From: Caldanaerobacter sp.
GTDB taxonomy: Bacteria; Bacillota; Thermoanaerobacteria; Thermoanaerobacterales; Thermoanaerobacteraceae
Assembly: GCF_049701115.1 (NCBI RefSeq)
Contig: NZ_JBNATX010000001.1
Coordinates: forward strand, 166,698-230,697
Direction of reading: 5' to 3'
DNA: 64,000 nt
In this document: piece after piece, positions 13,564 through 20,178 of the stretch
Numbering within the stretch: position 1 is the first letter of the stretch
How the letters are laid out: each line of letters starts with the position of its first letter
Position numbers and translations under genes: made by a program
The notes under the pieces: model-generated
Seen by the model: the letters and a program-made list of their open reading frames with translations, nothing else
What the model was told of the DNA's origin: nothing
Databases searched by the model: none

Positions 13564-14739
13564 TTAGTTTTCCAAAAACACCTTTCCATATATTCCGCCT
13601 CCCCCTGAGGCAATAGATATTTCTCCATTTCTCGCTTTCAAAATATTAAGAGCAATTTTTTCCCCAACAGCTTTTTTCAATTCCTCATAAGGTGCTTCAT
13701 GAAGCGCGTATATTTCGCTTCCAAAATAATCTACAAGTTTTTTAATAGTTTTTTTACCTATATTGGGAATAAATTCTAGTGGAATTTGATATATATAAGG
13801 GGGCCTAAAAAAAGGGTGCACTGTATCATGGTCTTTTATTTGCTCTATTCTGTCCTTCACTCCCATAACGATCTTATCACTACCACATTTCGGGCACCTT
13901 GTAACAGGGGGAGATTCTTTAGCAATATAGCCACATTCAAGACAAAAAGTTCTGTGATACTTTCCCAATTTCGGGTCTAATCCATAATTTTTTAAAATTC
14001 TTCTACCCCTCACTCTTTTTAAAGCTAACAAAATTTCCTCTAAATTTGGTTCTTCCACCTCTAAGACATTAAACTCTCTCGCAATTTTCCCTAAAGAATG
14101 CGCATCAGAATTAGAAAGAAAAGTTTTTGAAGAAAGCTCTGCTATTTGATCTGCCATATCTGAGTCGGCACTCAATCCCAGTTCTATTGCATCAATTTCA
14201 TTGCAGAAGTTATTAAAGATTTTACTCAGCCTATCTGTAGAACTTCCATAATAGCTTTTAAAAGGAGTAAAAACGTGGGCAGGCACTGGTATTCCATTAC
14301 AGCTTTTTATAACCTCAACCGCTTCTTTACTATTTAGGTTGACTCTTTGAGAACTTAAACTAACATTTTTCATATACTTACTTATTTTTTCAGAAAACAA
14401 GGAAATATCTTCTAAGGTCTTAAAATAGGCAATTAAATGGGGTGAACCCTTTTTTTCACCCCCAATTTCGATTTCACTTCCTAAAATCAGAGTCACTCTA
14501 TCTTTATAGCGCATTCCACCGCCTTCAAGCGGAGATAAAATTCCTTCTTCCTGATATTTTTTTATCTCATATATGAGATGAGGAGATGCACAATCCACTA
14601 CACCAACGATGTCTATACCTTTGAAAATGCTTTTTTCCAGGATGTTAAGAAGTGTCAAATCTCTTGAAGCAGATACTTTTATAAAAACTCCTCCCTCAGT
14701 ACGCCCTACGTGAATGTGAAGGTCTGCATAAACCTTCAT
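13564..14739 (-). CDS. Endonuclease Q family (YqxK/TIGR00375) PHP-domain nuclease
   Basis: DLHIH, PAHVFTP, SNSDAHS, GKYH and CxxC...CxxC zinc finger; real start at ATG 14739 overlapping the nudF stop (ATGA). Confidence 0.85.
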   Translation of the reverse strand: MKVYADLHIHVGRTEGGVFIKVSASRDLTLLNILEKSIFKGIDIVGVVDCASPHLIYEIKKYQEEGILSPLEGGGMRYKDRVTLILGSEIEIGGEKKGSPHLIAYFKTLEDISLFSEKISKYMKNVSLSSQRVNLNSKEAVEVIKSCNGIPVPAHVFTPFKSYYGSSTDRLSKIFNNFCNEIDAIELGLSADSDMADQIAELSSKTFLSNSDAHSLGKIAREFNVLEVEEPNLEEILLALKRVRGRRILKNYGLDPKLGKYHRTFCLECGYIAKESPPVTRCPKCGSDKIVMGVKDRIEQIKDHDTVHPFFRPPYIYQIPLEFIPNIGKKTIKKLVDYFGSEIYALHEAPYEELKKAVGEKIALNILKARNGEISIASGGGGIYGKVFLEN

Positions 14740-15284
14740 AACAAGCCTTCCTTCCCCAATTTCAAGTAATAAAGAACACCTATTACCGTCTTGGAATCTT
14801 TTATCATGTTTTTTAGAATCATTTGCCAAAGTTCCTCAGGAGAATACTCTACCACCTCTAAAAATTCATCTTCATCAGGATGAACTTTAACCTTTTTCAA
14901 GTCTTTTGCAAAGTAAAGATACATTTTTTCGTTTGAAAAGCCTGGAGTGGTATAAAAAGTCAGTAAATGCTTCAAATAACCTGCTTCATATCCCGTCTCT
15001 TCTGAGAGCTCTCTTTTTGCACACTCTTTTGGATCTTCTCCCTTCTCCAACTTGCCAGCAGGTATTTCTAATAGAATTTCTTCTGCGGGTTTTCTGTACT
15101 GTTTTACCAGAAGCAGTTTCCCTTCATTTGTAACTGCGACTATTGACACTCCACCGGGATGTTCGACTACCTCTCTTGTAGTTACTTTACCATTAGGTAG
15201 TTTTACTTCATCAACTCTCAAATTTATGATTTTTCCTTCAAATATCCTTTTACTGCTTACTGTTTCCTCTTTTACATCCATCAT
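14736..15284 (-). CDS. nudF: ADP-ribose pyrophosphatase (NUDIX)
   Basis: Nudix box EIPAGKLEKGEDPKECAKRELSEETG; REVVEHPGG. Confidence 0.9.
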   Translation of the reverse strand: MMDVKEETVSSKRIFEGKIINLRVDEVKLPNGKVTTREVVEHPGGVSIVAVTNEGKLLLVKQYRKPAEEILLEIPAGKLEKGEDPKECAKRELSEETGYEAGYLKHLLTFYTTPGFSNEKMYLYFAKDLKKVKVHPDEDEFLEVVEYSPEELWQMILKNMIKDSKTVIGVLYYLKLGKEGLL

Positions 15285-15349: not shown

Positions 15350-15451
15350 ATGCTAGTGTTTCTATATGTAGGAAAATTTTCAACTCTTATATCCCTTTTA
15401 AATAAGCTCGCAAAACAAAAATTAACCTTAAAAGATCTATTAAATTCCTAA
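15350..15451 (+). CDS. MciZ-like small protein (33 aa, putative FtsZ inhibitor)
   Basis: RBS GAGGTGAGG; MLVFLYVGKFSTLISLLNKLAKQKLTLKDLLNS; divergent from nudF like B. subtilis mciZ; gap-free VGK...L...KD register with MciZ. Confidence 0.65.
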   Translation: MLVFLYVGKFSTLISLLNKLAKQKLTLKDLLNS

Positions 15452-16516
15452 TAGTTCAGTAGCTACATAAATAGAAGCTGCACCACAAGCATTAAAAAAC
15501 TCTTTTTCTTCCTCGTAGCCTCTTCCCATAGTAGTCACATCAAAGTCCATTTCTCGCAAACAATCACCGGTTAACTCTGAATCTATAAAGCGTACATCAA
15601 ACCTTGAAAAAACTGGATTTGAAGCTATCTGATTCCTTACCAGTCTTTCCTTTTCTTCTTCCATGTTGGGAAAAGTTATGACAGAGGAAGAATAGCAGAG
15701 TTCTAAAACAGTTATGGTATGATGGCTTATCCCTTGATGCCTTCCTCTCGCATCTTTAAAACTTATCCTTGGAATAAGGACAGGCTTCCCTCCCATTTTA
15801 TTGACAGCATCTATTATGTAAGCCTGCTCAACGCCCGAAAAACCATACTTTGTACCCGTTCCCACTATTCCTGGCCCCATAGAAACTATTGCCACATCTG
15901 ACTTCAAAATTTCCTTAGAAGCTATAAGAGCGGTGTAGATATTGACACACTCATAGTCTCCGCCAAAGGCATGGCCAATAGTTATTGTAGCATCAAGAAC
16001 TCCCATGCCTTTAAGTTTATACACTGTATTGCTAATAGGAAGAGGTAATGCTCCTCCATCCGTCATTATATAAGTAATCTTAATGTCTGGCAGAAGTTTT
16101 TTTAACACCAGTGCCGAGGGAGTTACCATGCTGTGAAGTTCTCCTATTATTACAGGAAACCCGTTTAAATTCTTAAATTTATCAAACTCTTGGTGATATG
16201 GACTTGTTTCTTCTTCCATGGTCAGCAAATTCACCTGAAGAGGAGTATACCTTAGTTTCATTATATGACCTTTCCCAATGTTATCAAACTTATTATATTT
16301 CAAATTTGCGATAATAAAGTCATACCCACCCGTCCCTAAATTCAAAAGTCTAGCAGTCCTGTTAACATACACTAGATCTCCCTCTTCAACCTCTCCCGTT
16401 ATTTCATTGTAATTTATAGCTGCAGCCTTTTCACCTTCAGCCTCTATTTCTACTATAGAAATTTTGCCTCTTTTCGAAATTATTTTGCTTATTTGCCCAA
16501 GGTATATACTTATCAT
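15440..16516 (-). CDS. DUF3866 family protein
   Basis: LNLGTGGYDF, GHIMKLRYTPLQ, GELHS, MTDGGALP, MGPGIVGTGTKYGFSG. Confidence 0.8.
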   Translation of the reverse strand: MISIYLGQISKIISKRGKISIVEIEAEGEKAAAINYNEITGEVEEGDLVYVNRTARLLNLGTGGYDFIIANLKYNKFDNIGKGHIMKLRYTPLQVNLLTMEEETSPYHQEFDKFKNLNGFPVIIGELHSMVTPSALVLKKLLPDIKITYIMTDGGALPLPISNTVYKLKGMGVLDATITIGHAFGGDYECVNIYTALIASKEILKSDVAIVSMGPGIVGTGTKYGFSGVEQAYIIDAVNKMGGKPVLIPRISFKDARGRHQGISHHTITVLELCYSSSVITFPNMEEEKERLVRNQIASNPVFSRFDVRFIDSELTGDCLREMDFDVTTMGRGYEEEKEFFNACGAASIYVATELLGI

Positions 16517-17340
16517 TCCTCTTCTCCTCTTCTCCCCAGCATATCTAAATAATTTAAAAATTTGTTTTTCTCGATTAAAGCCGTCAAAGAATATCTCTCG
16601 GTAAAAAGATGAAACATTATAAGAAGAAGCAGTATAGCCAGTTTGCCATAAAAATCAAACAGTAAAATCGATGAAATACCTAAAGCCATGCCCAAGACAT
16701 TGGAACCTGTATCTCCCATCATGACACGGGCCTTCAAATCTTCTGGCATATACACAAGGACAATCACGAAAAGGATAAATAAGAACTCAGGCTTTCCCCT
16801 GCCAACCAATAAAAATAAGACAGAAAGCAACAAAAAAACTTTAGCACATCTTCCAGGCCTCAAATCAAAAAGATTCAAAAGATTGGTAAAAAGCGCTATT
16901 ATAAGTGAATCTATCACCAATTCAATCAAACCAATCCCTGCAATTTCACAACTGACAAAGGCAGCAATCAAAAGCCCTCCCAAAGCCTTAAGACTTCCAG
17001 TAGTGGGTTTCATCTTCAAAAGACTTGAAAGATGGCCTTTTAAGCCCTTTACCTTAGTATCACCTATAATGTCGTCTATAAAACCTAAAAATGAAATAAG
17101 CGAAAAAGCAACTAAGATAATTTCTTGGTACTCTACCGTGTAACCTAAAAAATTAATCAAGAAAATCGAGGTTAAAAAACTGGGAACGAAAACTATACCT
17201 CCACAGACCGGAATTATTTTTTTCCTGTAGTTTTCCCTTAAACAATAGGGGTGCTTAAAAATCTCCGTAAGAAATTTCTTTACAATAACCGTTACAACAA
17301 AGGGCACTAACAAATAAATAAGCCATTTCACTTCTTCCAC
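16513..17340 (-). CDS. MraY/WecA-like polyprenyl-phosphate sugar-1-phosphate transferase (glycosyltransferase family 4, Pfam sense)
   Basis: Multi-TM protein; GFIDD, NLLNLFD and MGDTGS motifs. Confidence 0.85.
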   Translation of the reverse strand: MEEVKWLIYLLVPFVVTVIVKKFLTEIFKHPYCLRENYRKKIIPVCGGIVFVPSFLTSIFLINFLGYTVEYQEIILVAFSLISFLGFIDDIIGDTKVKGLKGHLSSLLKMKPTTGSLKALGGLLIAAFVSCEIAGIGLIELVIDSLIIALFTNLLNLFDLRPGRCAKVFLLLSVLFLLVGRGKPEFLFILFVIVLVYMPEDLKARVMMGDTGSNVLGMALGISSILLFDFYGKLAILLLLIMFHLFTERYSLTALIEKNKFLNYLDMLGRRGEEE

Positions 17341-18026
17341 CTGCTTTTAAAAAATTTATATGTCAATACCTTTAATATATCTAAAAACTGCCTCCCCCTA
17401 TGCAGAAACCCCTTTAAATCCCTGCTTGTAAAGGAATGAGTCATATTGACTTCTACTTCTTTTACCCGATAACCTTTTTGCAAAATATCTATGGTCATCC
17501 CTACTTCTATTCCAAAACCACTATAGAAAGTATCTAAGCTTTCTAAAACCTCCCTTTTAAAAGCCCTTTGTCCAGAGAGGACAGACTCAAGTTCCTTTCC
17601 TGTAAAATATTTTACCCCTTTTCTTGCCAATCTCTTTACAATGCCAAATCCCCCTTTTACTGGGGCTTTTGGAAATTTTGCAATAACTACATCAGCTTCA
17701 TTTAAAATTATAGGGCTTATCAATTTTTCGACTTCCTTTGAAGAAAGCCCCACATCTGCATCAAGAAATACTATAATATTATTTTTTGCATATTTGAGAC
17801 CTTCTTTCAAAGCCGCTGCCTTCCCCATGTTTTTTTTCATGTTCACCAATTTTGCGCCCGCTTTTTTCGCTCTCTCGGCTGTTTGATCTGTAGAACCATC
17901 ATTTATTACGATTATCTCTTCTACTTGTTCTACAGCCTCCAAGCCCCTTATCGTATCAATTATCCTATCTTGTTCGTTATAAGCTGGTATCAACACACTC
18001 ACTTTTTCATCCATCTGTAATCTCAC
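17328..18026 (-). CDS. GT2 family glycosyltransferase
   Basis: LIPAYNE, INDGSTD, GKAAAL, DAD motif, SGQRAF. Confidence 0.9.
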   Translation of the reverse strand: MRLQMDEKVSVLIPAYNEQDRIIDTIRGLEAVEQVEEIIVINDGSTDQTAERAKKAGAKLVNMKKNMGKAAALKEGLKYAKNNIIVFLDADVGLSSKEVEKLISPIILNEADVVIAKFPKAPVKGGFGIVKRLARKGVKYFTGKELESVLSGQRAFKREVLESLDTFYSGFGIEVGMTIDILQKGYRVKEVEVNMTHSFTSRDLKGFLHRGRQFLDILKVLTYKFFKSRWKK

Positions 18027-18934
18027 CTTTTCTGAGTTATGTTGGAAGGAGCATTTCCAAAAGAATCTGGCATGAGGCTCATGGCTCCTTGTTTAATGCC
18101 ATAATTGCCTTCTTTTCCTTCCATCACCATTATAAGAGCAGTTTGTCCTATTATGCTATCTACATCGTCTACTGTAGAGATATGCTGTTTTTTGTACACA
18201 TCGATGTAAGAATACTTAGCATCGCTTTGTTCAACCCCAACTATAGGAATATTCAAAAGCTTGACTTCTTTTATGATAGGAACATCTATAGTATTTGCGT
18301 TGTTGTCCTTATTGTTACTACCTCCGGCTATAATTACAAAATCTACATTTCCAGGCACTCCTGTAAAATCTATATAGCCATTTGACTTTAAATAATTTAT
18401 GAGATCCACATCTTCTCCTGTGACAATGGCATGAGATAATTTCTGAGCTACAAATTCATTCAACCTTTTTAAGTCAACCGAAACCCCATATTTTGAAGAT
18501 AGAAAACTCGTTAAATTTTCTACCTGTATGTCACTTCCTGAATCAAAACTTTCTTTTATTATGGTTATAGATTGAATTGTGGCTCCCGCCTTTAAAAGTG
18601 CATTTCTCATGCCAGAAAATATAAACTCATTAGTCGTCTCAATTATGGCTACCTTCACACCAGCGAGTCTATTGGCTATAAGTTCAGGAAAGATTATTTG
18701 ATGATACTGATTATAATAATTTATCTCTTTATTTAGGTCTTGTATGGTATTTTTCAAATTGGCATTTTCAGCCTGTAAATCTTTAAATTTTTGTTCCAGC
18801 TCGTTTATTATGGCAGTTTGCTGCTCAGAAAAAATTTTTTGCCCATCTAGCATAAACCCAATAAAAATTCCTACCCCTAATGCTACAAATATAGAGGCAA
18901 TTGTGAGAACATAGTACTTTATGTTTATATTCAT
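18023..18934 (-). CDS. SteB/MctB (DUF3186, 'copper transporter') family protein
   Basis: KYYVLTIASIFVALGVGIFIG TM segment, coiled coil, and ISTVDDVDSIIGQ motif. Confidence 0.85.
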   Translation of the reverse strand: MNINIKYYVLTIASIFVALGVGIFIGFMLDGQKIFSEQQTAIINELEQKFKDLQAENANLKNTIQDLNKEINYYNQYHQIIFPELIANRLAGVKVAIIETTNEFIFSGMRNALLKAGATIQSITIIKESFDSGSDIQVENLTSFLSSKYGVSVDLKRLNEFVAQKLSHAIVTGEDVDLINYLKSNGYIDFTGVPGNVDFVIIAGGSNNKDNNANTIDVPIIKEVKLLNIPIVGVEQSDAKYSYIDVYKKQHISTVDDVDSIIGQTALIMVMEGKEGNYGIKQGAMSLMPDSFGNAPSNITQKR

Positions 18935-18948
18935 AGAAAATCATCTCC

Positions 18949-20070
18949 CTAAAAACCAATTAAAAGCCTAATCCTTAATTGCAGGAGTCTAAGAAGCTGC
19001 TGCATTGGAGGTGAAAAGTAAGCTAGCACTCCCAATGGAACTAATGCTGCAATTATTATGCTAAAAATATATGAAAGTTTAAAATTTTCCCTATAGAGTT
19101 TGTTAACCCCTTTGGCATCGATCAGTTTTTCCCCTACTTTTAATCGAACTAAAAATGTGCTTGCCATCCCTTTTCTTCCTTTTTCTAAAAAATCGATCAT
19201 ACTAGAATGAGTCCCTACAGCTACAATAAGGTCCGCTCCTTTTTCAAAAGCTAAAAGCATTGCTATGTCTTCGCTGGTACCTGGTGCTTTAAAAACTTCT
19301 GCATTAAGCCCCAATTTCTGCACCCTTTCAAGCCCTGGCGCCCTTCCATCCGGATAAGCGTGCACTATGATCTCTTTTGCTTTTTTTAAAGCTTCATCAC
19401 TAACACTGTCCATGTCTCCTATCACTATGTCAGGAACTAACCCGAATTCTAAAAGAGCGTCCGCTCCCCCGTCTACTCCTATTAGAATCGGTTTTACGTC
19501 AGTTATATACTGTTTTATAGTAAAAAGGTCCTCCTTGTAGTCCTTCCCGCGCACCACTACAAGAGCATGTCTTCCTTTAAAGCGGACCTTTGTAGGAGGA
19601 AGTTCAACTCCCCCTAGAATGAAATACTTTTCTTTCTTGGCGTATTCTAAGGTGTTTTCAATAAATTTATCCAGCTCTTCTCCTATATTTTCTCTGCTCT
19701 CTTGAAGTTTGTATTCGACTACTTCTTTGGTAAGTAACTTCCCTCTTTTTAACAAAATCCCATCTTTGTATATCTCATTATCTACTATAGTAATTTTATC
19801 ATTTTCCTTAAGTAAGTCGAATATATCTTTCCCTACATCATCTATTATCGGAATTCCCGCCTCACACAGAATATAAGGTCCCATATTGGGGTACCTTCCG
19901 CTTATGGACCTATCTGCGTTTATCACGGCCAGTACCTTTTTTTCAACAAGAGATTCAGCAGCCACCTCATCCAAATCTCTATGGTCTATCACTGCTATAT
20001 CGCCCGGCTTCAATCTTTTTACCAGGTTTTTAGTTCTTTTATCCAATTTTACAAATCCTGTTATTTCCAT
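18949..20070 (-). CDS. steA: SteA family putative cytokinetic ring protein (thiamine pyrophosphokinase-like fold)
   Basis: DKRTKNLVKRLKPGDIAVIDHRDLD, SGRYPNMGP, IGVDGGAD, GTSEDIAML, GMASTFLVRLKVG; C-terminal TM. Confidence 0.88.
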   Translation of the reverse strand: MEITGFVKLDKRTKNLVKRLKPGDIAVIDHRDLDEVAAESLVEKKVLAVINADRSISGRYPNMGPYILCEAGIPIIDDVGKDIFDLLKENDKITIVDNEIYKDGILLKRGKLLTKEVVEYKLQESRENIGEELDKFIENTLEYAKKEKYFILGGVELPPTKVRFKGRHALVVVRGKDYKEDLFTIKQYITDVKPILIGVDGGADALLEFGLVPDIVIGDMDSVSDEALKKAKEIIVHAYPDGRAPGLERVQKLGLNAEVFKAPGTSEDIAMLLAFEKGADLIVAVGTHSSMIDFLEKGRKGMASTFLVRLKVGEKLIDAKGVNKLYRENFKLSYIFSIIIAALVPLGVLAYFSPPMQQLLRLLQLRIRLLIGF

Positions 20071-20104
20071 AAAAGCTCACCCACCAACTTTCGCTTCCCT
20101 GTCT

Positions 20105-20113
20105 ATTATAACA
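20105..20113 (-). promoter_or_regulatory. SigmaA extended -10 promoter of the steA operon
   Basis: TGtTATAAT about 35 nt upstream of the steA start. Confidence 0.55.
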
Positions 20114-20139: not shown

Positions 20140-20178
20140 AAAAATAAAAAGCAGGAAATAGAAAATCATCCTGCTTTC
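20140..20178 (-). terminator. Terminator after spo0A
   Basis: aagcagga/tcctgctt stem followed by a long T-rich tract. Confidence 0.55.

Follow-up and report, generated by a model that had tools for sequence, protein, structure and literature searches.

SteA and SteB (together SteAB) were reportedly described in 2019, with a structure said to have been solved in 2026, as a regulator of cell separation in the Mycobacteriales. According to Carloni et al. (2026), the two proteins form a transmembrane complex, SteA2–SteB2, which positions the hydrolase RipA (PMC12977500). The pocket of SteA is similar to the sites at which TPK and the sialyltransferase CstII bind nucleotides, and a carbohydrate ligand is predicted for it; the Corynebacterium protein, CgSteA, is stabilised by GDP and UDP, and not by nucleotide triphosphates (PMC12977500). 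Septal localisation, the complex with SteB and the binding of UDP or GDP are known for the Corynebacterium and Mycobacterium proteins only (PMC12977500, PMC6705760). The same work reports SteA–SteB fusions in Nocardioidaceae and, in a subset of Bacillota (mainly Clostridia), steAB directly 3' of spo0A, with a possible role in sporulation proposed; its main text mentions no glycosyltransferases, pyrG or DUF families (PMC12977500). Here we analyse a block of five genes headed by steA and steB in a 64,000-nucleotide stretch of the genome of Caldanaerobacter sp. (contig NZ_JBNATX010000001.1, positions 166,698 to 230,697; hereafter "the window").

A second published data set bears on this block. 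Screening of Clostridioides difficile by CRISPR interference and transposon sequencing showed that the genes cdr20291_1053-1057 are essential and placed them in no pathway; they are annotated as a pyrophosphokinase of 373 amino acids (aa), an exported protein (291 aa), a family 2 glycosyltransferase (230 aa), a glycosyltransferase (274 aa) and DUF3866 (355 aa) (PMC12157513). Knock-down resulted in chaining and in cells that were short, swollen and phase-bright, and all four of the genes that were targeted gave this same phenotype, for which polarity is a possible cause (PMC12157513). The five genes have the same order and annotations as those in the window, and their lengths (373, 291, 230, 274 and 355 aa) are close to those of the window's proteins (373, 303, 232, 275 and 358 aa); the orthology is drawn solely from order, size and annotation. 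The C. difficile study neither names the first two genes SteA and SteB, nor proposes a pathway (PMC12157513).

In the window the block comprises five minus-strand open reading frames (ORFs) that span 15440-20070, with spo0A upstream:

18949-20070, minus strand: steA, 373 aa (NF040608)
18023-18934, minus strand: steB, MctB family, 303 aa (PF11382)
17328-18026, minus strand: family 2 glycosyltransferase (GT2), 232 aa (PF00535)
16513-17340, minus strand: short PNPT, of the MraY/WecA superfamily (GT4), 275 aa (PF00953)
15440-16516, minus strand: DUF3866, 358 aa (PF12982)

A gap of 14 nucleotides (nt) separates steA from steB; the remaining junctions overlap, by 4 nt (steB and GT2), 13 nt (GT2 and PNPT) and 4 nt (PNPT and DUF3866, at ATGA). 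On the basis of the comparisons set out below we consider it probable that the block is a copy of an ancient envelope module, present in several phyla of Gram-positive type, in which PNPT and GT2 would produce a polyprenyl-linked sugar and SteAB would couple this activity to septal wall processing. The window's copy is an ordinary and intact representative of a widespread module, with nothing unusual about it.

The first protein matches NF040608 (putative cytokinetic ring protein) across residues 3-370 with a score of 534.6 bits, against a cut-off of 150, and also matches PF12555 (SteA-like_C, 58.1 bits) and PF04263 (TPK_catalytic, 37.8 bits); an MptE-like match falls under Pfam's cut-off. Alignment to the solved SteA of M. 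tuberculosis (9hmy) gave 249 bits and 38% identity over 324 residues. The GDxDS-type motif of the TPK-like domain reads GDMDS in the window's protein and GDPDQ in 9hmy. A single transmembrane helix is predicted at the C-terminus, where residues 332-350 are hydrophobic, and the protein is predicted to be a cytoplasmic, TPK-like protein with a C-terminal membrane anchor. SteB matches PF11382 along its full length (131.9 bits; gathering score 25.6). A search of PDB sequences with SteB gave no match. Its AlphaFold2 model (pLDDT 84) comprises an N-terminal transmembrane helix, a long coiled-coil helix and an alpha/beta ectodomain, and when this model was compared to PDB structures with Foldseek the best seven matches were all SteB/MctB from M. 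tuberculosis (9hle, 9m9z, 9hmx and 9ma1), with E-values of 1e-10 to 1e-12 and TM-scores of 0.56-0.66; the following match had a TM-score of 0.26. Together these data strongly support true homology of SteA and SteB to the transmembrane SteAB complex of mycobacteria. Identity across phyla is 38-49% for SteA and 17-29% for SteB, and tblastn searches with the window's proteins under-detect SteB.

The correspondence extends to gene order: like the RipA regulators of Mycobacteriales (Rv1697-Rv1698/MctB; Cg1603-Cg1604), the window's genes are adjacent, occur in the same order and lie in recN...nudix-xerD surroundings. Two differences are evident. The window and most non-mycobacterial lineages add GT2, the short PNPT and DUF3866, either nearby or at a distance; and a search with PF00877 found no RipA-like coiled-coil NlpC/P60 hydrolase in the window's genome. 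The only match to PF00877 in that genome is a 306-aa NlpC/P60 protein with a signal peptide and no coiled coil (G000:C20, L235:913-1833), in which two SH3-like repeats are discernible by eye; this protein is a candidate extracytoplasmic partner of SteB. Its layout is one that we take to resemble that of C. difficile CwlA.

The third protein, GT2, matches PF00535 with 100.6 bits. It has an LDAD (DxD) motif, is of the soluble GT-A type without transmembrane helices, and ends in a basic, amphipathic segment (HRGRQFLDILK). GpgS (60 bits) and an archaeal Dol-P-Man synthase (56 bits) are its closest solved relatives, together with ArnC and GtrB, and the motifs LDAD, DGS.D.T, GK..A, GGFG and SGQRAF are kept in 58 orthologues. 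Its scores fall under every named equivalog cut-off (in bits, score and cut-off: AglJ, 118 and 325; GpgS, 89 and 262; PpgS, 84.5 and 370), those for Dol-P-hexose transferase and ArnC included. The likeness to the DPM1 clade (DPMS, GtrB, ArnC and PpgS) and to GpgS consists of the GT-A fold, the DxD motif and similarities of 40-60 bits, and the basic amphipathic C-terminal helix resembles the interface helices of these enzymes; unlike the DPM1 clade, the window's GT2 has no transmembrane helices of its own and is instead tied to PNPT. Motifs and profile matches strongly support its designation as a DPMS/GpgS-like GT-A enzyme.

The fourth protein is a marginal match to PF00953 (34.8 bits; cut-off 27), and with 24.7 bits against the MraY equivalog TIGR00445 (cut-off 192) it is not MraY proper; a separate MraY/WecA paralogue is encoded elsewhere in the window's genome. 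A profile of short PNPT orthologues distinguishes the two kinds of protein, with orthologues scoring 244-325 bits and MraY/WecA paralogues at most 41 bits. A search of PDB sequences with the short PNPT gave no match. Residues D89, D90, N153, N156, D159, G209, D210 and G212 show no variation among 16 sequences drawn from two phyla, and the same positions are at least 95% conserved across 62 orthologues; the conserved blocks are DD (89-90), N153xxN156xxD159-L-RPGR, K167 and MGDxGSN. This conservation strongly supports retention, by the short PNPT, of the catalytic Asp motifs found in MraY/WecA-type enzymes. As judged from hydropathy and length, the protein has approximately 8-9 hydrophobic segments, with only some 45 residues following the GDxGS motif, and falls short of the 10-11 transmembrane segments of the PNPT superfamily.

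A polytopic PNPT with Asp motifs, paired with a cytoplasmic glycosyltransferase, is also the arrangement of MraY-MurG (lipid I to lipid II), WecA/TagO-TagA and Alg7-Alg13/14. In the module described here the partner is a GT-A enzyme (GT2) rather than one of GT28 or GT26, and the PNPT is shorter and carries D-L-RPGR. The fusion of PNPT to its partner in some lineages and the MurJ-type flippase contained in some blocks count among the similarities.

Rosetta-stone fusions join the two genes in other lineages. At locus L192, GT2 and PNPT form one ORF of 471 aa. A database search with this fusion returned 594 significant matches; the best 120 of the 594 are nearly all 395-606 aa long and exceed the length of either gene, and many carry annotations for PF00535 as well as PF00953. 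In an Armatimonadetes metagenome-assembled genome (L237) the order is nadK-steA-steB-[GT2::PNPT, 529 aa], and a near-identical arrangement with a fusion of 533 aa is found at L236. A metagenome contig (L239) has tlyA-nadK-recN-steA-SRPBCC-steB-[GT2::PNPT, 403 aa]-pyrG...M20-DUF3866...NUDIX. The fusions of L236, L237 and L239 retain all motifs, each half being 30-38% identical to the corresponding protein of the window, and one GT2::PNPT fusion is present in two independent assemblies. Within the linker there are either two extra transmembrane segments or a deletion of the first transmembrane segment of PNPT; this topology is compatible with a GT2 that lies in the cytoplasm and is tethered to the cytoplasmic PNPT loop following that segment. 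These comparisons strongly support the existence of GT2 and PNPT as a single polypeptide in many lineages. The SRPBCC (Polyketide_cyc2) protein of L239 (L239:6686-7108; 140 aa) is wedged between steA and steB.

Enlarged versions of the block occur among Actinomycetota. In some, the interval from steB to PNPT contains a large polytopic protein, a GT-B enzyme and a flippase of the MurJ family (256 bits); one block combines GT2 with a GT-B and a PMT_2 (GT-C) enzyme; and in several, GT2 is absent, with a GT-B enzyme in its stead, and PNPT is kept. The large proteins are 730-880 aa in length and comprise an extracytoplasmic domain of approximately 350-500 aa followed by a C-terminal cluster of transmembrane segments. 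They have no Pfam match and at least one carries a signal peptide. Beside a short PNPT and MurJ they are encoded at:

L229:7264-9456
L227:6924-9569
L218:8741-11038

For the window's own phylum (Bacillota), 60 DUF3866 neighbourhoods and 31 steA neighbourhoods were searched with the window's proteins. The genes steA-[steB]-GT2-PNPT are contiguous in 57 of 57 Clostridia-type loci, which represent many families, with stop and start codons that overlap; GT2/PNPT junctions are mainly of -4, +4 or -8 nt. The block is immediately 3' of spo0A in 24 of the 31 steA loci. DUF3866 was found in 21 of 21 relatives and in 184 of 301 genomes of the phylum; 14 control genomes were all without it. Every one of the 59 DUF3866-positive genomes examined encodes SteA, 28 in the same locus and the other 31 (31/31) elsewhere in the genome. 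Among 20 DUF3866-negative genomes a full SteA was found in none (one has a contig-end fragment beside spo0A), and a short PNPT was found in none of the five that were tested. Genuine Spo0A is present in 12 of the 20 genomes that are without SteA and DUF3866.

A steB-like ORF is absent from the block in 10 of the 57 loci. Loss of steB where steA abuts GT2 was considered and rejected, given that 9 of these 10 genomes keep a relocated MctB-family gene elsewhere. In the tenth (G116, locus L091) steA contains an internal TAA stop (model positions 1-330 are matched) and no MctB-family gene is found anywhere in the genome, with GT2, PNPT and DUF3866 kept; this state may mean that the SteAB arm is decaying, or it may stem from a sequencing error.

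Genomes of Actinomycetota were sampled around a Mycobacterium starting point, and the ORF starts in their high-GC loci are approximate. DUF3866 is present in 127 of 251 genomes. The order recN-steA-steB-GT2-PNPT-pyrG-(M20)-DUF3866-NUDIX-xerD is found in 24 of 40 DUF3866 loci, and in one of these, L183, the junctions overlap. SteA is encoded in 19 of 19 genomes, a set which includes all 16 in which DUF3866 is detached from steA, and in 18 of the 19 both PNPT and pyrG lie beside it. A search of DUF3866-negative Actinomycetota found PNPT in 0 of 20, and SteA in a single Mycobacterium only. For the Mycobacteriales, the comparison set came from a profile scan of contigs with the two-phylum SteA alignment, the matches of which were all from this order: 60 loci have the order recN-steA-steB-pyrG-NUDIX-xerD, without GT2, PNPT or DUF3866, and whole-genome searches agree with this. 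Because these 60 loci are without the three genes, the glycosyltransferase-less steAB of Mycobacteriales, the group whose SteAB has been characterised, is by gene content a reduced form. The window's block is most aptly regarded as a fuller variant of SteAB. Taken together, the patterns in both phyla strongly support joint gain and loss of the genes for SteA, PNPT and DUF3866.

The block had previously been picked out by a sequence-only reading of the window, which described five tightly packed genes behind an extended -10 element; the ORFs and family hidden Markov models agree with it on gene calls, families, the gap and the overlaps. Co-occurrence across genomes, which that reading named beforehand as a test, holds in the window's phylum and in Actinomycetota. 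Its depiction of a sporulating thermophile in which genes of actinobacterial type had newly been coupled has to be abandoned: the set looks ancestral and is widespread in both phyla, the steA-steB-GT2::PNPT core also occurs in the Armatimonadetes genome, and it is the Mycobacteriales form that is reduced.

DUF3866, the fifth protein, matches PF12982 with 436.7 bits (gathering score 25) and is single-copy in nearly all genomes searched. The AlphaFold2 model (pLDDT 87, pTM 0.85) is of a soluble protein with a beta-barrel at the N-terminus and an alpha/beta domain of two lobes. Since many His, Arg and Asp positions are invariant, as are Gly-rich loops, these features point to an enzyme whose ligand is phosphorylated. 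No PDB sequence was matched in a profile search, and Foldseek gave no convincing PDB fold match, returning generic Rossmann/SIMIBI-like and OB-like folds with TM-scores of at most 0.32. A resemblance to the N-domain of CTP synthase, considered together with the adjacency of pyrG in Actinomycetota, was set aside as too weak (TM-score of approximately 0.25). The most constant neighbour of DUF3866 is a NUDIX hydrolase of NudF/YffH type, found in 40 of 64 loci from the window's phylum and 16 of 40 from Actinomycetota; whether it is part of the system is uncertain. In the window's phylum, detached copies of DUF3866 lie 10-130 kb from steA, beside nudF-spoIIM-xerD. The case for DUF3866 as a putative member is its phyletic match with PNPT and SteA, and not adjacency.

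Some further arrangements around DUF3866 were observed. A gene for an M20/DapE-ArgE-like peptidase stands between pyrG and DUF3866 at L183:8281-9408 and in 13 other Actinomycetota loci, and also in L239; in L183 it overlaps both neighbours by 1-4 nt. The intervening peptidase may hint at an amide- or peptide-bearing substrate of DUF3866. Two loci from Actinomycetota, L207 and L208, have the order DUF3866-PNPT-pyrG-NUDIX, with DUF3866 directly 5' of PNPT in the slot usually taken by GT2. In L205:6861-15318, in L185 and similarly in L200, L201 and L203 the order is dop-prcB-prcA-pafA-DUF3866-pafB-pafC, with no obvious link to the envelope.

The following features flank the block in the window:

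20150-20175, minus strand: terminator-like hairpin and U-run of spo0A (7-bp stem, 12-nt loop)
20105-20113, minus strand: extended -10 promoter-like element, TGTTATAAT (consensus match by reading)
14736-15284, minus strand: nudF-type NUDIX hydrolase (PF00293, 80.5 bits; NudE/YffH-like matches)

The hairpin that follows the spo0A stop codon has a folding energy of -10.6 kcal/mol (z = -3.66), and none of 200 shuffled sequences folds as well; it was skipped by the consensus scan for terminators, its loop being longer than 8 nt. This terminator-like element would separate spo0A from the five genes. Within the block the scan called no terminator-like site, although loops of more than 8 nt escape it. 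The -10 element, of the TGnTATAAT type, is 35 nt 5' of the steA ATG and is of sigma-A type with a weak -35; a GGTGG ribosome-binding site precedes steA. An exact Spo0A box (TGTCGAA/TTCGACA) was not seen in the spacer between spo0A and steA. On the minus strand the wider order is dxs-tlyA-nadK-argR-recN-spoIVB-spo0A-[five genes]-nudF-PHP protein-spoIIM-xerD. The PHP-domain protein (window 13564-14829, minus strand), between nudF and spoIIM, belongs to the TIGR00375 family and has a zinc-ribbon-like CxxC pair and helix-hairpin-helix motifs. Its listed TTG start runs 94 nt into the nudF ORF, so the true start is probably further downstream. A TIGR00375 protein is near the block in 24 of 64 loci from the window's phylum.

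If the block is an envelope module, then the following sequence of events can be envisaged. PNPT would act at the cytoplasmic membrane face and move a sugar-1-phosphate from a UDP-sugar onto undecaprenyl phosphate. GT2, either docked on PNPT or tethered to it, would add the next sugar, freeing UDP or GDP; in some Actinomycetota a GT-B enzyme would take this role. The lipid-linked product would be flipped by a MOP/MurJ-type flippase, which in some Actinomycetota would be that of the block and here would be encoded elsewhere. SteA2-SteB2 would tie the pathway to septal wall processing and cell separation. Because the pocket of SteA binds UDP or GDP (in Corynebacterium) and is predicted to bind carbohydrate, it could read the nucleotide or nucleotide-sugar of the pathway. 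DUF3866 would be a cytoplasmic enzyme co-inherited with PNPT and, since it is usually found beside a NUDIX hydrolase, would probably act on the donor or a related nucleotide-sugar. A working analogy is provided by FtsEX-CwlO/SweCD, FtsEX-RipC and FtsEX-PcsB, in which a cytoplasmic nucleotide-binding module is connected by transmembrane helices and a coiled coil with an extracytoplasmic wall hydrolase; SteAB differs in having no ABC ATPase, and in the TPK-like pocket of SteA, which binds UDP or GDP rather than ATP. The chaining, swelling and lethality recorded in C. difficile fit a module that acts on both separation and envelope integrity.

A more ambitious version of this proposal is possible, and we put it forward tentatively: SteAB would ancestrally be the sensor and output arm of a lipid-linked glycan pathway that had escaped notice, the flux of which licenses septal cleavage. 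A PNPT of a new, minimal class, working as one unit with GT2, would start the pathway, the UDP/GDP-type ligand of SteA would be the nucleotide or nucleotide-sugar of that pathway, the mycobacterial SteAB would be a remnant, and the C. difficile cluster would be the intact machine.

The sequence-only reading had anticipated parts of this scheme. Its proposal that the MraY-like enzyme primes and GT2 extends gains indirect support from the GT2::PNPT fusions, from the replacement of GT2 by GT-B enzymes and from the MurJ flippases within blocks. Its inclusion of DUF3866 survives in weaker form, in that the gene co-occurs with those for SteA and PNPT and is attached to them less tightly. Its claim of an undescribed system applies only in part, given that the matching C. 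difficile cluster was already published as essential (PMC12157513) and the position of steAB 3' of spo0A was already reported (PMC12977500).

A number of observations weigh against the envelope module. The window's block has no flippase, polymerase or ligase, and the genome is without a RipA-like hydrolase. The recN...xerD surroundings are an old syntenic backbone of unrelated housekeeping genes, which makes adjacency weak evidence, and presence and absence follow family lines, such that shared ancestry inflates the co-occurrence counts. SteAB of Mycobacteriales works without glycosyltransferase genes; the coupling is thus not obligatory. The short PNPT is approximately 50-90 aa shorter than MraY and WecA, its second motif is D-L-RPGR instead of D-G-x-D-G-L (the second Asp is replaced), and it appears, from its length and hydropathy, to be without the final cytoplasmic loop that reads the nucleotide-sugar (HHH/HIHH) and a transmembrane segment. 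Of the families sampled in the window's phylum, only about half have DUF3866 next to the PNPT gene, and in the 16 genomes of high-GC Actinomycetota in which DUF3866 is detached it lies between pafA and pafB/pafC of the Pup-proteasome locus.

Four other explanations were weighed against the same data. One holds that SteA takes part in the pathway as an enzyme, either a TPK-like pyrophosphokinase or a CstII/Maf-like transferase, with the lipid-linked sugar or the donor of that sugar as substrate, and that control of hydrolases through SteB is secondary or specific to Mycobacteriales. The TPK_catalytic match, the MptE-like match below cut-off, a metal-binding-type GDxDS motif kept between phyla and a pocket that can be overlaid on the nucleotide sites of both TPK and CstII are all consistent with this, as are the much stronger conservation of SteA than of SteB and the 10 of 57 loci in which steB is outside an otherwise intact steA-GT2-PNPT. 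However, no catalytic activity has been reported for SteA, nucleotide triphosphates did not stabilise CgSteA, SteB is kept in 9 of the 10 genomes in which it has left the block, and SteA-SteB fusions exist in Nocardioidaceae; we regard this explanation as unlikely, although by no means negligible. Decidedly unlikely, in our view, is that synteny persists without shared function, the genes being held in the old backbone (tlyA-nadK-recN ... pyrG/nudix-xerD) with SteAB and the transferases in unrelated pathways. The window shares that backbone with Actinomycetota and with Mycobacteriales; steA and DUF3866 are often 10-130 kb apart; and mycobacterial SteAB functions without glycosyltransferase genes (PMC12977500). 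Against this stand the 57 of 57 contiguous loci with overlapping stop and start codons, the retention of PNPT in Actinomycetota blocks despite inserted envelope genes, GT2::PNPT fusions that remain behind steA-steB in a third phylum, and the joint loss of SteA, PNPT and DUF3866 in both phyla from genomes in which recN, nudix and xerD persist; the single phenotype of four C. difficile knock-downs points the same way, polarity permitting. Fusions, overlaps and co-loss weaken pure inherited synteny as an explanation for the block, while for DUF3866 it may yet apply.

The remaining two explanations concern the catalytic status of PNPT and the purpose of the block. The short PNPT could be a degenerate MraY that serves as a non-catalytic scaffold or sensor of the lipid carrier, with GT2 as the sole enzyme, making a polyprenyl-monophosphate sugar or a GpgS-like soluble glycoside. 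A truncated C-terminus, the altered second motif and a marginal Pfam score are compatible with such a role; so too are the best solved relatives of GT2 (GpgS and polyprenyl-phosphate sugar synthases) and the layout of the fusions, a GT-A domain with a membrane domain, which resembles DPMS and GtrB. Yet in sequences from two phyla, with an overall identity of 27-48%, DD, N..N..D, K167 and GD.G never vary, as is characteristic of a conserved active site, and PNPT stays where GT-B and MurJ replace GT2 in some Actinomycetota; a scaffold is thus very unlikely. As a sporulation module, the block would be placed behind spo0A to serve asymmetric septation, engulfment or cortex synthesis; this explanation draws on the location directly 3' of spo0A in 24 of 31 loci, on the proximity of spoIVB and spoIIM and on the possible role in sporulation suggested by Carloni et al. 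We consider it extremely improbable: the genes occur in Actinomycetota and in an Armatimonadetes genome, where the fetched loci gave no match to spo0A or spoIVB; 12 of the 20 genomes that are without SteA and DUF3866 have bona fide Spo0A; in C. difficile the cluster is needed for growth of vegetative cells; and the extended -10 is of sigma-A type with no exact Spo0A box in the spacer. The module is housekeeping and not specific to sporulation.

The envelope module thus remains the reading that we favour, and it alters the context in which each of its components is viewed. Most lineages have SteAB hard-wired to two enzymes, a short MraY-like transferase and a further glycosyltransferase, and the comparison defines a distinct, minimal PNPT subfamily. 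The orphan family DUF3866 gains a testable context. The pathway of the short PNPT and GT2 is a concrete candidate for the source of the cytoplasmic ligand of SteA; and the five essential genes of C. difficile acquire a pathway hypothesis, which makes them potential narrow-spectrum targets.

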